Shown here in pieces: positions 2,880 through 53,648 of a DNA stretch of 64,000 nucleotides. Numbering within the stretch: the stretch's first letter is position 1; each line of letters opens with the position of its first letter. Source of the DNA: Syntrophaceae bacterium UBA6078. GTDB taxonomy: Bacteria; Desulfobacterota; Syntrophia; Syntrophales; UBA2210. The notes below the pieces were generated by a model that was not told where the DNA came from, did not search any database, and saw only the letters and a list, made by a program, of their open reading frames with translations. The translations under genes and the position numbers were made by a program. The DNA is taken from contig DIXO01000044.1 in assembly GCA_002428735.1 (NCBI GenBank), positions 2,114-66,113 on the forward strand, in the 5' to 3' direction.

Positions 2880-3140
2880 CTACTTACCCTGTACCACTTG
2901 AAAGATTTTAAGGGCGTCTTCTATCTCCTTTTTCCCTACCTTCCCCTTCCATGCCTTCGTGTTGTCGAGAAGGTATTCCGACACCCTGTCCGCCATGCAT
3001 GCAGGGCAGAGATGCACCATCTTCATGCTCTCTATATGCCGGACGACGCATAACAGATCGGCTTGTTCTCCGCAAAGAAAACACCTGTCAGGCCTGTCGT
3101 CCTCGTGGCGTTCGTAGTATCCTTCATCGTAACACTTCAT
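2880..3140 (-). CDS. Hypothetical zinc-ribbon-like protein
   Basis: 86 aa with two CxxC pairs (CFLCGE...CPACM). Last gene of the minus-strand CheY / hybrid kinase run. Confidence 0.5.
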   Translation of the reverse strand: MKCYDEGYYERHEDDRPDRCFLCGEQADLLCVVRHIESMKMVHLCPACMADRVSEYLLDNTKAWKGKVGKKEIEDALKIFQVVQGK

Positions 3141-3207: not shown

Positions 3208-4311
3208 TTAGCGCGGAAATCGCAAGTTAAAGGTTGTTCCCCTTCCCTCCTCTGACGAAACTTCTATCTTCCCTGCGTGGGCGTCCATGATTCTCTTGCA
3301 GAACGTCAATCCCAATCCGGAACCTTCGATGTGTTCACCCCGTTCCTTGACCCGGTAAAAGGGCTCGAATATGAAGGGAATCTTGTCTTTGGGGATCCCT
3401 CTCCCTGTATCGGAGATGGCCACGTGGACATGGTAATCATCATGCCGGGCTCGAATGGATATGGTTCCTCCGGCGGGGGTGTACTTGGTCGCGTTCCCGA
3501 TAATATTCACAAAAACCCTGACAAGGCTTTCCCTGTCCCCGGTTATCGCGGGCAGATCTTCCGGGATATCGCTCTTCAGAACGATCCCTCTCTTTTCACA
3601 GAGCGGGGCCATATCCTCCATGCTGTGAAGAAGAATATCGGCGATATTGAGGATCCCTTTGTCCCGTATGAGCGTCCCTTCCTCTATCTGGCGTATATTG
3701 AGCCAGTGTTCAACCAGATCCTCCAGATTCCGAATCCGCTTCTCACATCGTTCTATGATCTGGTTCGCCTCATCGCTCAGGCAGTCCCCTGCCACTACCC
3801 TGAGTGACTCTAAACTCTGCTGGACGGTCATCAAGGGGGAGCGCATCTCATGGCTGACAAAGGTAATGAAATCCCTTGCCATCTCCTCCTGTGCAGCCCG
3901 CAGGCGTTCCGCCTCTATGATGAGCGCGTGGTGGTCAAGCCCCCTTTTCGTCACAGCCCTGAGCTGATCGGGGGTAAAGGGTTTGGGGAGATAGTCATAG
4001 GCCCCCCGCTTCATCGATTCCACCGCGGATACGATGGAGGCATACCCCGTAATGACAACGAGAACGATATGAGGGATATCTGCCAGCAGGATGTCGATGA
4101 CCTCCAGGCCTGACATGCCGGGCAGGTTGAGATCCACGAAGACCAGGTTAGGTTTTTGTTCCCTGGCAATCCTGATCCCTTCCGACCCGTCCCCCGTGGT
4201 GATGACATCGTAGCCTGACTTCTCGAGGACCTGTCGGCACCCATCCCGGATTGTCTCCTCATCATCAATGATAAGGACAAGATCCTCTTGGCTTTCATAG
4301 GACATGGGCAT
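3208..4311 (-). CDS. Hybrid sensor histidine kinase with an N-terminal receiver domain
   Basis: REC domain (LVLIIDDEETIRDG...VFVDLNLPGMSG...KP). HisKA H-box FVSHEMRSPL. HATPase_c N/G boxes (NIIGNATKYTP, DTGRGIP, GSGLGL). Confidence 0.85.
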   Translation of the reverse strand: MPMSYESQEDLVLIIDDEETIRDGCRQVLEKSGYDVITTGDGSEGIRIAREQKPNLVFVDLNLPGMSGLEVIDILLADIPHIVLVVITGYASIVSAVESMKRGAYDYLPKPFTPDQLRAVTKRGLDHHALIIEAERLRAAQEEMARDFITFVSHEMRSPLMTVQQSLESLRVVAGDCLSDEANQIIERCEKRIRNLEDLVEHWLNIRQIEEGTLIRDKGILNIADILLHSMEDMAPLCEKRGIVLKSDIPEDLPAITGDRESLVRVFVNIIGNATKYTPAGGTISIRARHDDYHVHVAISDTGRGIPKDKIPFIFEPFYRVKERGEHIEGSGLGLTFCKRIMDAHAGKIEVSSEEGRGTTFNLRFPR

Positions 4312-20439: not shown

Positions 20440-21854
20440 GACTCTCCGGCTATCCGTTTTATCCCGTCCCGTATCAAGGGAAAGTCCTCTTGTGCAATCG
20501 TTCGCAGGTCAAAAAGGACCCTGTCCTCGTAAATTCTTGCAATGATGGGAATTTCCAGCGTGCGCAACTTTCTCTCCAGCCTGCTCGCCGAGAGAGTCCG
20601 CGACTCCACCGCGATAACGGCGGTGGGGATCTCCTGCGTGGGAAGCGAACCGCCTCCGGCCATGGACGTGGCCTTCATCATGGAAAATTCCAGACCTTTC
20701 AGTGATAACTGTTTCAGGAGGGCGATCAGCTCATGAGCCCGTTTTTCGACCTCGGCCACCGGTTCGGTCAGCGCCCGGAGTACCGGTATGTCGGAAATCG
20801 CCCGACCGAGATCCAGATAATGGATCATGGTCGCCTCAAGGGCCGCCAAGGTTAATTTGTCTATCCGGAGGGCGCGATTGAGGGGGTTCTTCTTTATCTT
20901 CGCAAGGATCGCCCCCTTCCCCAGGATGACCCCGGCCTGCGGCCCTCCGAGAAGCTTGTCCCCGCTGAAGGTGACCACGTCCACCCCCGTCTTGACAACC
21001 TCCTGAACCGTCGGCTCCTTCTCGAAGCCATACATATCAAGCGGAACGAAGCAGCCGCTCCCCAGATCGTTCATCACCGGGACTCCCCTGTTGTTCCCCA
21101 GCGTCACCAGTTCTTCCAGACCAACCTCATTGGTGAATCCGAGCACCTTGAAGTTGCTCGTGTGCACCTTCAGAATCACTCCGGTAGTGCTTTCCACGGC
21201 ATTTTCGTAATCCGACAGATGGGTTCGGTTCGTTGTTCCCACCTCCCGGAGAACGGCGCCGCTTTTTCCCATCACCTCGGGGATGCGAAATTCCCCCCCG
21301 ATCTCAATCAATTCGCCCCGCGACACAATGGCCTCCTTCCCCTCGGACAGGGTGTTGAGGGCAAGGAGAACGGCGGCGGCGTTATTATTGACAATCAGGG
21401 CATCTTCGGCCCCCGATACGGAGCAGAGGAGTTCTCTCACGTGATCGTAGCGCACCCCCCGCTTCCCCGTGTCGAGATCGAATTCGAGATTTGAATATCC
21501 GGCGCTGACATCGATTATCCGTGCGAGGGCCTCAGCGCAGAGCGGGGCGCGCCCCAGGTTTGTGTGCAGGATTATGCCGGTCGCATTGACCACCCGGCGG
21601 AGGCTGGAGGTATACAGATCGAGAAGCCGTTTCCGTACCGCCTGCGCGGCCTCGGCTGCCGGCACAGGAAGAGGGTTTTTTCCTCCCTTTTTTGGATGCA
21701 GAATTTGCAGCCGCATCTCGTCGACCACTTGACGGCATTTCGCCACCACAATGTCCCGGGAGATCCCTTCACAGGAGCCGTCCTTTTCGAGAATGTGGAG
21801 CATATCGTCGATCTTCGGGAGATCTTTCAGCAGTTCTCTAGTTGCGTCATTCAT
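20436..21854 (-). CDS. selA: L-seryl-tRNA(Sec) selenium transferase
   Basis: The N-terminus MNDATRELLKDLPKIDDML aligns with the SelA N-terminal pattern. The PLP-lysine motif FSGDKLLGGPQAG is present. A GGAGG-type SD precedes the ATG at 21854. Confidence 0.9.
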   Translation of the reverse strand: MNDATRELLKDLPKIDDMLHILEKDGSCEGISRDIVVAKCRQVVDEMRLQILHPKKGGKNPLPVPAAEAAQAVRKRLLDLYTSSLRRVVNATGIILHTNLGRAPLCAEALARIIDVSAGYSNLEFDLDTGKRGVRYDHVRELLCSVSGAEDALIVNNNAAAVLLALNTLSEGKEAIVSRGELIEIGGEFRIPEVMGKSGAVLREVGTTNRTHLSDYENAVESTTGVILKVHTSNFKVLGFTNEVGLEELVTLGNNRGVPVMNDLGSGCFVPLDMYGFEKEPTVQEVVKTGVDVVTFSGDKLLGGPQAGVILGKGAILAKIKKNPLNRALRIDKLTLAALEATMIHYLDLGRAISDIPVLRALTEPVAEVEKRAHELIALLKQLSLKGLEFSMMKATSMAGGGSLPTQEIPTAVIAVESRTLSASRLERKLRTLEIPIIARIYEDRVLFDLRTIAQEDFPLIRDGIKRIAGES

Positions 21855-51190: not shown

Positions 51191-51847
51191 TTACACGGAT
51201 ACCGGTTCGATGCAGCGCGGGTCGTTGTTCCCGGGTGAATCGACGAATTTTGAAACGGGGTACGTCTTGACTGTGGTCACCCGGCCGTCCGTGAGGATCG
51301 CCCGCAGGGCAGCCGGGTCGGTCGTTTGGGGATCGAGCCATGCCTCCATCGCCTCGGGGGTGAGGATCACCGGCATCCGGTCGTGGATCTCCCGCATCGA
51401 TCCGCCCGCCTCCGTCGTGATGATCGCGCAGGAGTGATAGGGAGATTGATCGGCCCCCCGCCACGTATCCCAGAGCCCCGCGAAGCCGAAGAGGGTGTCG
51501 CCGATTGGAGTACAGTACCAGGGCTGCCGGTCCTTCCATTCATAAAAGCCGTCGGCCGGTATGAGGCAGCGCCTCTCCCTGAAGGCCCTTTTGAAGCTGG
51601 GTTTTTCCGCCAGGGTTTCCACGCGGGCGTTGATCAGCGTGGGTCTCCGGGGCAGATCTTTCGCCCAGGGGGGGACCAGCCCCCAGCGCAGCTTCCCGAG
51701 GCGGGTGTTTCCCTGCCGGATGATCGCGCAGACCTCGTCGCCGGGAGCGATGTTGTAGCTGGGTTGCATCTCGTCGGTGACGGTGTCGACACCGAAGACT
51801 TTTTTCACGTGGTTGAGCGAACTGTATAAGGTGAACCGTCCACACAT
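51191..51847 (-). CDS. yedK: SOS-response-associated peptidase (SRAP/YedK) abasic-site processing protein
   Basis: MCGRF (catalytic Cys2)...SYNIAPG...WGLVPPW...NARVET...CLIPADGFYEW is the canonical SRAP pattern. Confidence 0.9.
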   Translation of the reverse strand: MCGRFTLYSSLNHVKKVFGVDTVTDEMQPSYNIAPGDEVCAIIRQGNTRLGKLRWGLVPPWAKDLPRRPTLINARVETLAEKPSFKRAFRERRCLIPADGFYEWKDRQPWYCTPIGDTLFGFAGLWDTWRGADQSPYHSCAIITTEAGGSMREIHDRMPVILTPEAMEAWLDPQTTDPAALRAILTDGRVTTVKTYPVSKFVDSPGNNDPRCIEPVSV

Positions 51848-51948
51848 GACCGTTACAGAAATCCGAGCATACTTCCCATTGTTTTTTTACGATATCTTCT
51901 TTCCCAGTGGTTTCGTATCCGATTTTCCCTCTATCAGCATGTATATGA

Positions 51949-52006
51949 GTTCGTTATATAGGGACCCACGAACGGAATCAAGGGAATAGCGTGCCGGCAG
52001 GGGAAG
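51949..52006 (-). repeat. Direct repeat copy 2, containing a sigma-70-type promoter upstream of the SRAP gene
   Basis: The minus strand reads GCTATTCCC-TTGATT-(17 nt)-TATAAC-GAAC. The -35 is at 51976..51981 and the -10 at 51953..51958. Paralogous to 49476..49530. Confidence 0.55.
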
Positions 52007-52101
52007 CGGCCTATTGCCGTGAGGGCTGAAACGCGGCGGTTTTTACCCTTGACAAACCGTGTCATGGATGTACCTATTGATGTGAAATAAGGAGGTGAGG
52101 C

Positions 52102-52584
52102 ATGAGTGATACGGAAAGAGTCGATCCCACACCGGCCCCCGACTTCGAGCTTGCCGACAGCGAAGGCCAACCGGTAAAATTGTCCGGCTACAAGGGCAGC
52201 CGACATGTCGTTCTTATCTTTAACCGCGGCTTTGTCTGACCATACTGCCGAAAGCACATGGCGCAGTTGCGCCGTGACTATCAGGAATTCGTGAAAAGGG
52301 GCGCCGAGGTCATCGCCATCGGCCCTGAGAAACCGCACGCCTTCGCCGACTGGTGGCGTGAACATAAGATGCCCTTCCCGGGACTGGCCGACCCGGAGCA
52401 CCGCGTATCAAAGCTGTACGGGCAGGAGGTCCGGATCTTCAAACTGGGACGCATGCCGGCACAGCTCATCATCGACAGGAACGGCATGATACGCTACAAA
52501 CACTACGGCGCTTCCATGAAGGACATTGCAGAAAACAGCGAACTGCTCTCAAGGCTGGATGAATTGAACAGGGAAGAAGCGTAA
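52102..52584 (+). CDS. Peroxiredoxin/redoxin (AhpC-TSA family)-like selenoprotein, U-P-Y-C motif (UGA at 52237..52239)
   Basis: TAAGGAGGTGAGG SD precedes the ATG at 52102. The frame is open apart from one TGA. The product ...PAPDFELADSEGQPVKLSGYKGSRHVVLIFNRGFV-U-PYC-RKH...AIGPE... has the thioredoxin-fold Prx/BCP layout, with U at the active-site Cys position. The track shows only 52258..52584. Confidence 0.8.
52257..52276 (+). promoter_or_regulatory. Candidate SECIS stem-loop
   Basis: CAUGGCGC-AGUU-GCGCCGUG: an 8-bp stem (one G-U pair) with a GU-containing tetraloop, starting 20 nt after the U of the UGA. Confidence 0.45.
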
Positions 52585-52700
52585 TCCGTGCTTCGTTGAG
52601 GACTGCTCACGAAGGGTCCCCCCTCAGAAAGACTGGGAGCACCCTCTCTATCCCCACAGAGCTCCCCCTTTTTCTTAAAAATAGGGGCTCTGTCCCTCAT

Positions 52701-53648
52701 TTACACATGGTTGCGAAGCTGCAACTCTAGGGGATGGGGATTGAGATAAAACTGTTCTTTCAGGTACGGCTCGTCGTATTTCCTGACATAGTGATTCATC
52801 AGGGTTACCGGCACGATCAGGGGAATGAGACCGTTGCGGTATTGCTCGACGATCTCCAGAATCTCCTTCTTCTCATCGGAGGATAGTTGCTTCTTGAAGT
52901 AGCCCATGATGTGATGCAGGACATTGGTGTGCTTCGCTGTCGTGGGCTTGAGGGCCATGGCCTCCATAAGCAGCTTCTCATACTGCGTGATGAACTCGTT
53001 CGGCGGAAACTCTTTCGCATGGGCCACAAGATTCCCCATCTGCCGAAGGTGTTTCGGGCTGTGGGCCATGAAAAGCAGCTTGTTTTTCGTGTGAAAGGCC
53101 ACAAGATTCCTGATCAGGTCTTTCCCCCGCATCGCCTCCCGGTAGCGCTTATATGTGAAGATACGTTCGATGAAGTTTTCCCGCAGAACAGCGTCGTGGA
53201 GCCTCCCTTCCTCCTCGACGGGCGTGAGGGGAAAATGTTCCATAAAGATCCGGGCGAAGACCCCTACGCCGATCTTCCGGGGCATCCCCTTGTCGTCATA
53301 TACCTTGACGCGCTCCATCCCGCTCGATGGTGAATCGCTTTTGAAGACAAATCCGCAGAGATCCTCCTTATCGAGGGCTTTCACACGCTTTCCGGCCCAT
53401 GTCTCCATCCGTTCCGTGTGATCGATGCCTGTTTTGCCCGTCACAAGGCGGGGCCGCGCAGGATCGCCCACGAGCCGCAACGTTTCACGCGGGACGCCGA
53501 GGCCGCATCCCACCTCGGGGCACACGGGAACATACTGAACATATCTGCCCAGGGTATCGCGCAGAAAACGGTCCAGCGCGTGGCCGCCGTTATAGCGGAC
53601 ATTTTCACCCAGCAGGCAGGAACTGATGCCGATCGGAATCTTTTCCAT
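52701..53648 (-). CDS. DUF523 (TudS-like) - DUF1722 (YbgA-like) fusion protein
   Basis: The N-terminal IGISSCLLGENVRYNGG...VPVCPE matches the DUF523 Cys pattern. The C-terminal half (HTKNKLLFMAHS...) resembles YbgA. Confidence 0.75.
   Translation of the reverse strand: MEKIPIGISSCLLGENVRYNGGHALDRFLRDTLGRYVQYVPVCPEVGCGLGVPRETLRLVGDPARPRLVTGKTGIDHTERMETWAGKRVKALDKEDLCGFVFKSDSPSSGMERVKVYDDKGMPRKIGVGVFARIFMEHFPLTPVEEEGRLHDAVLRENFIERIFTYKRYREAMRGKDLIRNLVAFHTKNKLLFMAHSPKHLRQMGNLVAHAKEFPPNEFITQYEKLLMEAMALKPTTAKHTNVLHHIMGYFKKQLSSDEKKEILEIVEQYRNGLIPLIVPVTLMNHYVRKYDEPYLKEQFYLNPHPLELQLRNHV

Follow-up and report, generated by a model that had tools for sequence, protein, structure and literature searches.

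A predicted Prx-like UxxC selenoprotein gene, miscalled as a 108-residue fragment, in Syntrophaceae bacterium UBA6078

Bacterial selenoproteins in which the peroxiredoxin (Prx) domain pfam00578 is combined with a UxxC or UxxU motif, U being selenocysteine (Sec), have been grouped as the 'Prx-like thiol:disulfide oxidoreductase' family, which is credited to Kryukov & Gladyshev 2004 (PMC9312934, PMC13188914) and graded 'predicted with high confidence' (PMC13188914). The GOS analysis counted 225 'Prx-like 1' sequences (PMC2398784), and Zhang et al. 2006 listed one Prx-like selenoprotein in Syntrophus aciditrophicus, in Geobacter species and in Desulfotalea (PMC1794560). Here we describe a gene at positions 52102-52587 of a 64,000-nucleotide stretch of DNA (the window) from contig DIXO01000044.1 of Syntrophaceae bacterium UBA6078, order Syntrophales. 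Our analysis indicates that it very probably encodes one cytoplasmic redox selenoprotein of 160 residues, with a Prx scaffold and a thioredoxin (Trx)-type active site, belonging to this known family.

The gene shares with the Prx-like family the AhpC-TSA domain, a UxxC motif that opens with Sec where homologues have Cys, and a bacterial selenocysteine insertion sequence (SECIS; bSECIS for the bacterial type) immediately downstream. Occurrence in Sec-rich anaerobic Deltaproteobacteria and a function that is only predicted are further points in common, and we find no difference in kind. The clade of the gene, with the signature FNRGFxUP[YF]CRxHMAQLR, has its centre in Chloroflexota and Syntrophales and carries a hairpin of nearly invariant sequence. 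By these features the gene is predicted to be a member of the family. An earlier note on the same DNA had stated that Prx-like selenoproteins occur in Sec-rich Deltaproteobacteria, and the literature bears this out (PMC1794560 among it).

Several other families are related through the fold or the active-site motif. The best NCBIfam match is the SelL-related redox protein (NF040769, 79.6 bits), which likewise has a Prx-like fold with a Sec-containing dyad. However, the score stays below its cut-off of 120 bits and the match extends only over profile positions 2-99 of 173, which places the gene outside the SelL-related subfamily. The model of PrxU (NF040737, motif TxxU), which has a cut-off of 270 bits, gives 26.8 bits, and the Sec of our protein lies three residues upstream of that of PrxU. 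TlpA/ResA/CcmG and the thioredoxins resemble the protein in that a dyad of CxxC type would open helix alpha-1, and in that a Pro is placed by alignment where they have the cis-Pro, ahead of strand beta-3 and in the context G-x-x-P-x-x-h-h-D-x-x-G. Unlike TlpA/ResA/CcmG, it has neither signal peptide nor membrane anchor, and the first Cys of the dyad is Sec. ResA structures are matched at ~1e-13 by profile alignment; however, the overall sequence is nearer to BCP than to ResA, whose model gives 57.4 bits against a cut-off of 170. None of the NCBIfam models reaches its cut-off on this protein.

One gene across an in-frame TGA

In the mechanical list of open reading frames (ORFs) the frame appears only as 52258..52584 (108 aa). 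The earlier note had proposed that this entry is the remainder of a longer gene, opened by an ATG at 52102 behind a Shine-Dalgarno (SD) sequence and read through a single TGA. Inspection of the sequence and its translation agrees with that proposal throughout. A single base separates TAAGGAGGTGAGG from ATG 52102, and the ATG at 52258 has no preceding SD. From ATG 52102 the frame contains one in-frame TGA only (52237-52239) and ends with TAA at 52585-52587; upstream it is closed by an in-frame TGA at 52096-52098. The read-through product (TGA = U) begins MSDTERVDPTPAPDFELADSEGQPVKLSGYKGSRHVVLIFNRGFVUPYCRKHMAQLRRDY, which contains the NRGFV-U-PYC-RKHMAQL segment of the note, and close orthologues keep the N-terminus MSD.E. 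The N-terminus MSDTERVDPTPAP, as read from the translation, holds no hydrophobic segment, signal peptide or anchor, and the protein is therefore predicted to be cytoplasmic.

Profile searches, which the note had suggested as a check, connect the two sides of the TGA. The read-through product is matched by AhpC-TSA (PF00578) at E 9.8e-30 (103.5 bits, cut-off 26) over residues 11-132, one match running across the TGA from profile position 4 to 123 of 124; Redoxin matches at E 3.1e-22. Taken alone, the 45 codons before the TGA match profile positions 4-32 and the 108-aa piece matches positions 45-123. The halves thus fit complementary parts of the profile, so the TGA divides one single domain, and the listed ORF is without the N-terminal part and the active site, as had been claimed. 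Alignment of homologues only after the Met at 52258 would have spoken against the proposal, but it spans the TGA. Among 75 distinct orthologues, residues upstream of the TGA such as A12, P13, F15, D19, G22, L27 and R42 keep their identity in the protein with varying codons (codon entropy 1.6-2.3 bits at their 4- and 6-fold sites, and 1.6-1.8 bits for A12, P13 and G22). Since the protein is conserved while its codons vary, this stretch is translated under purifying selection. Positions 52102-52587 are one continuous gene with an intact domain, which has been miscalled as a 108-aa fragment.

Were the TGA to act as a real stop codon, the locus would have to be read as a gene that is split or in decay, made of a 45-aa peptide and an independently initiated 108-aa fragment, and the hairpin that follows the TGA would be incidental or an antisense terminator. 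The ORF list with its 108-aa frame fits such a view, as do the frequency of TGA, the commonest stop in the window, and a simple scan that flags the hairpin as terminator-like on the minus strand. However, a pseudogene would not keep its stop at one codon in 80 of 80 loci from several phyla, nor would it keep purifying selection at the protein level upstream of that stop. The 108-aa piece, moreover, has no active site, misses the first third of the domain and starts at an ATG without SD, and the antisense ORF at 51934-52401 finds no family match. The comparative data effectively refute a genuine stop, which we consider extremely improbable.

Selenocysteine at codon 46 and the downstream hairpin

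In the alignment of full-length homologues, the column of the TGA holds Cys in the genuine Cys forms (CPYC or CPFC) and W in many database homologues. The W forms can be translated only with TGA = Trp, and hence represent the same TGA, mis-translated. Among the best 80 related loci of a collection with one genome per species, TGA stands at the position of codon 46 in every one (80/80). A residue other than Cys or Sec in this column, which the earlier note had named as evidence against Sec, was thus not what the alignment gave. Within the same order the gene is present in 13 of 41 genomes, and all 13 carriers have the TGA. A separate observation is that only 4 of 8 genomes of the window's own genus carry the gene, so that gain and loss are frequent even among close relatives.

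The same combination of TGA and hairpin was also followed at the DNA level. A 35-nt pattern with 23 specified bases, comprising the TGA and the hairpin core, was scanned against both strands of 596 Gb of sequence and was found in more than 120 species-level genomes among the matches listed, compared with a chance expectation of ~0.02 hits. Most carriers among the matches listed belong to Chloroflexota, with the cultured Anaerolinea thermolimosa IMO-1 (locus L142) as one of them, or to Desulfobacterota; metagenome-assembled genomes (MAGs) labelled Spirochaetota, Actinomycetota, Firmicutes, Zixibacteria, Rokubacteria and others make up further carriers.

The machinery for Sec decoding is present in the genome. 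A tRNA-Sec (75.6 bits; ARAGORN call SeC, anticodon TCA), selB (361 bits) and selD (383 bits, G000:C1:810-1727) are found on contigs other than that of the window, whereas selA lies within the window, apart from our gene (Table 1). All four score above their curated cut-offs. As a side observation, selD itself carries one in-frame TGA (GAGUACK motif), and SelD is likewise a selenoprotein here. From the conserved codon, the Cys homologues and the machinery, TGA codon 46 is predicted to encode Sec.

If the TGA were translated as a standard amino acid, be it Trp in an alternative genetic code or Cys or Trp through near-cognate suppression, this would agree with the Trp found at this position in 30 of the best 120 database clusters. 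However, these Trp calls are gene-caller artefacts that need TGA=W. TGA ends most long ORFs of the window (35 of 60 by a crude count), which argues for an organism without an alternative code, and the carriers belong to ordinary code-11 phyla. In addition, homologues have the redox Cys of CxxC at this position, and a dedicated SECIS-type hairpin together with the full Sec machinery is present. Such a decoding has, in our judgement, hardly any probability.

The earlier note had pointed to an 8-bp stem with an AGUU loop shortly after the UGA, and folding reproduces this element (Table 1). The stem has 8 pairs, one of them U.G, and begins after 17 nt from the UGA. It folds with -14.4 kcal/mol (z = -4.2), and none of 200 shuffles folds as well. 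All its values lie within the ranges that a published model of bacterial SECIS elements sets (PMC13188914). The apical loop has 4 nt (AGUU; model 3-9 nt) and the upper stem 8 bp (model 4-16 bp). The G required within the first two loop positions is at position 2 and is followed by U, the spacing from UGA to loop is 25 nt (model 16-37 nt), and the minimum free energy (MFE) lies below the limit of the model (<= -7.5 kcal/mol).

Across orthologues the core AUGGCGC-AGUU-GCGCC is almost invariant. The stem typical of the family has 6 bp and a closing pair past a 1x1 mismatch, and the window copy is among the few with a continuous stem of 8 bp. In-register pairing is found in 88% of cells among 75 orthologues, compared with 22-55% when the partner is slid. 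Because covariation is uninformative here, constraint on the RNA was judged by the codon entropy at synonymous sites, so that our argument is one of conservation and not of compensation. Within the hairpin, the 75 distinct orthologues use GCG for Ala54 in 97%, CAG for Gln55 in 100%, TTG, one of six Leu codons, for Leu56 in 100%, and CGC or CGT, both of which pair, for Arg57 in 100%. As a control, Ala, Gly, Pro, Leu and Arg residues that are conserved to the same degree at other places in the gene have a codon entropy of 1.4-1.9 bits. This pattern shows that a constraint at the RNA level acts on exactly the hairpin codons. A stem-loop lacking conservation, the remaining observation that the note had held to be damaging, was not encountered; the core is nearly invariant and its codons are frozen.

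Cys forms from five lineages, fetched singly, served as a further control. The hairpin is lost in three of the five (P0010, P0047, P0033) and decayed in one (P0018). In the fifth, P0009 (L099:866-931), where TGT takes the place of TGA, the hairpin ATGGCGCAGTTGCGCC is kept letter for letter; this form is most simply understood as a recent Sec-to-Cys conversion that carries a fossil SECIS.

A few minor observations concern the same region. The codon of Cys49 is TGC in 97% of orthologues, and a small UGCC...GGCA hairpin lies between the UGA and the SECIS (window 52246-52256; alignment columns 10-20), with ~90% of cells paired. This small hairpin may belong to the recoding signal or may simply reflect codon bias. 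In one relative (P0112, L106:1266-1331) the Sec codon is TTA (Leu), one base off TGA, with the hairpin fully intact; this would point either to an allele that has been inactivated or to an error in assembly or sequencing. Locus L026 has a second in-frame TGA near position 3058 (..LSGYUGDKH..), 15 codons upstream of the Sec codon, where its close relative L085 has Arg, and one relative genome (G025) likewise has two TGA codons. Such a second in-frame TGA may mean that the gene is a pseudogene, that the sequence contains an error or that recoding occurs at a second site.

Active site and possible chemistry

The AlphaFold2 (AF2) model of the protein has a pLDDT of 93 and a pTM of 0.89, and its helix 47-65 begins right after U46. 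A Foldseek search returns BCP, AhpE and 2-Cys peroxiredoxins at TM 0.82-0.85, so that the fold is that of a Prx. Catalytic positions were read from profile alignments to the solved Prx structures 2ywn, 3drn and 2cx3. In all three structures U46 is aligned with the Thr/Ser of PxxxTxxC. The partner of C49 is the peroxidatic Cys in 2ywn and 2cx3; in 3drn, a Cys-to-Ser variant, it is the Ser at that position. R42 falls on the signature Pro, and P119 on the catalytic Arg, in two structures each (2ywn, 2cx3). The earlier note had seen the layout of BCP/AhpC-TSA proteins in the translation. This holds for the domain (E 9.8e-30), but the peroxidatic motif is not retained, with U46 at the Thr/Ser and P119 at the Arg.

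The BCP/PrxQ and AhpE-type Prx (2ywn, 3drn, 2cx3, 1xvw) therefore share with our protein the fold, the Pfam domain and a C49 at the position of their peroxidatic Cys, whereas the canonical Pro, Thr and Arg are R42, U46 and P119. In R42...U46..C49 only the Cys position of the PxxxT/SxxC signature is kept. C49 and the G-R-M-P-A motif with P119 are invariant in the homologue alignment. Atkinson & Babbitt 2009 (PMC2757866) described the Prx site as a 'cxxC' (TxxC) derivative of the thioredoxin CxxC site, and noted that the Prx arginine stands where thioredoxins and cytochrome-maturation proteins have their cis-proline. UxxC precedes helix 47-65 in our model, and alignment assigns Pro119 to the cis-Pro/Prx-Arg position. 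Taken together, these alignments suggest a site of thioredoxin/TlpA type (UxxC plus Pro at the cis-Pro position) on a Prx-type scaffold.

On this basis a course of events can be proposed. SelB and Sec-tRNA(Sec) would be recruited by the hairpin 17 nt downstream (52257-52276), which sits within the coding sequence of the first turns of helix alpha-1 (H-M-A-Q-L-R-R-D), and would decode UGA codon 46 as Sec. At the N-terminus of helix alpha-1, U46 would be an exposed nucleophile and might attack a substrate disulfide or another oxidised species. C49 would resolve the intermediate to give an intramolecular selenenylsulfide, which a thioredoxin-type system could re-reduce, and P119 would serve as the cis-Pro of the substrate-binding loop.

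The same gene and the same Sec could, alternatively, make a Sec-dependent peroxidase, in which U46 is oxidised by H2O2 or an organic hydroperoxide to a selenenic acid, C49 resolves it and thioredoxin recycles the enzyme. Glutathione peroxidases likewise have Sec at the N-terminus of helix alpha-1 and use a selenenic acid cycle, and Sec is superior to Cys as a peroxide nucleophile. The fold, the Pfam domain AhpC-TSA and the best sequence and structure matches (BCP, AhpE and 2-Cys peroxiredoxins) speak for such a role. The invariant R42 and R117, which adjoin the motif and the Pro in sequence, could supply the positive charge of the Prx Arg. The carriers are, by their record titles, mostly strict anaerobes, to which peroxide scavenging is valuable. 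However, three of the four positions of the Prx catalytic signature are replaced (P by R42, T by U46, R by P119), and the model of PrxU, a true Sec-peroxiredoxin, gives only the low score reported above. Moreover, CxxC with cis-Pro is the arrangement of thioredoxins and cytochrome-maturation proteins (PMC2757866). We regard a Sec-dependent peroxidase as possible, though unlikely.

Certain points weigh against the reading that we prefer, a Sec-containing disulfide reductase of the Prx-like family. Its mechanism is deduced from motif geometry, and the best structural matches, being peroxiredoxins, are compatible with a peroxidase role. Membership of the family, whose type example is WP_010940744.1, was judged by published defining features. 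To our knowledge, Sec insertion has been demonstrated experimentally for no member of the clade, this gene included. Covariation in the hairpin is weak among the 75 orthologues, since the hairpin hardly varies; only 5 cells show double changes (L053 and L040 included), and shuffle controls are not exceeded. An Rfam scan of 52000-52700 at E <= 10 found neither SECIS nor another credible RNA family. An all-against-all BLAST of flanking ORFs found no conserved neighbour in 81 loci, and thus no hint of a substrate.

It has also been considered that the clade centred on Chloroflexota and Syntrophales represents a functionally distinct, almost strictly Sec-dependent enzyme and not a generic disulfide reductase. 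The hybrid active site is flanked by the invariant residues R42, R117, H100, Q108, R131 and H134, and the enzyme may have a specific substrate. An essentially invariant 16-nt hairpin, AUGGCGCAGUUGCGCC, is common to at least six phyla, and it may be a portable minimal SECIS that enables the gene to function after horizontal transfer. We offer the idea of a distinct enzyme as a speculation that is more probably wrong than right by a good way. The frozen hairpin and the hybrid Trx/Prx site make the family a convenient system in which to study SECIS portability and the advantage of Sec in a CxxC-type site.

Database calls, distribution and genomic surroundings

The earlier note had stated that standard gene callers miss such genes, and the databases agree. 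Among the best 120 protein clusters, 73 are cut short and begin at the Met that follows the TGA, 30 have Trp, 12 have a true Cys and 1 has Leu, so that at least 103 of the 120 closest clusters are truncated or Trp-translated. These mis-calls probably arise because no NCBIfam model reaches its cut-off. Relatives are encoded in 472 stretches of the genome collection, and a dedicated model would therefore correct several hundred gene calls. The gene is thus a clean and well-controlled case of systematic mis-annotation. It adds one member to the selenoproteome of this genome, beside SelD and a TsoX-type gene in the window. The scientific value is modest, since the family has been predicted since 2004.

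The gene is monocistronic. A divergent gene lies upstream and a convergent one downstream (Table 1).

Table 1. Positions of the gene, its parts and other features in the window
Feature	Position	Strand	Remarks
Shine-Dalgarno region TAAGGAGGTGAGG	52088..52100	+	read from sequence; AGGAGG core 52090-52095, 6 nt before ATG
Complete coding sequence (CDS), predicted Prx-like UxxC selenoprotein, 160 residues	52102..52587	+	ATG 52102, predicted Sec-UGA 52237, TAA 52585-52587
UGA codon 46, first position of U-P-Y-C	52237..52239	+	aligned Cys in homologues; TGA retained
Cys49 codon TGC, second UxxC position	52246..52248	+	invariant in homologue alignment; peroxidatic-Cys position
Predicted SECIS hairpin CAUGGCGC-AGUU-GCGCCGUG	52257..52276	+	loop 52265-52268; within codons H52-D59
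Pro119 codon in invariant G-R-M-P-A	52456..52458	+	by alignment, cis-Pro position of Trx fold = catalytic-Arg position of Prx
selA (selenocysteine synthase)	20466..21827	-	TIGR00474, 604 bits (G000:C11:22579-23940); apart from this locus
SRAP (yedK-like) gene	51191-51847	-	divergent, upstream
2-thiouracil desulfurase/DUF1722 gene	52701-53648	-	convergent, downstream

A gene of the 2-thiouracil desulfurase/DUF1722 type stands beside the selenoprotein gene in 6 of the 81 loci, which is a weak association. A neighbour cluster of 48 loci was rejected as a GC-rich shadow frame. The antisense ORF 51934-52401 (155 aa) was rejected as a gene, with no Pfam match, and the minus-strand call at the SECIS hairpin, the single terminator call of the simple scan, was rejected as a terminator. 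A promoter scan gave no convincing promoter upstream; its single promoter-like match falls inside the CDS.

Two further observations concern loci elsewhere. Locus L113, on a 3.5-kb contig of a Clostridiales MAG, has the TGA-plus-hairpin signature twice, at 259-293 and 3252-3286, ~3 kb apart, and may hold two paralogous copies. In a Dehalococcoidia MAG (JBAZEO010000001.1; L020/L182) the protein is 79% identical to that of the Syntrophales gene, compared with 55-65% for other Chloroflexota copies. This closeness suggests either horizontal transfer or a mis-binned contig; the 1.2 Mb size of JBAZEO010000001.1 argues against mis-binning.

The stretch 52616-52700, between the convergent stops of our gene and its downstream neighbour, contains the inverted repeat GAGCTCCCCC...GGGGCTC with runs of T and A on its flanks. 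In appearance this repeat resembles a terminator acting in both directions, although it was not called by the simple scan.

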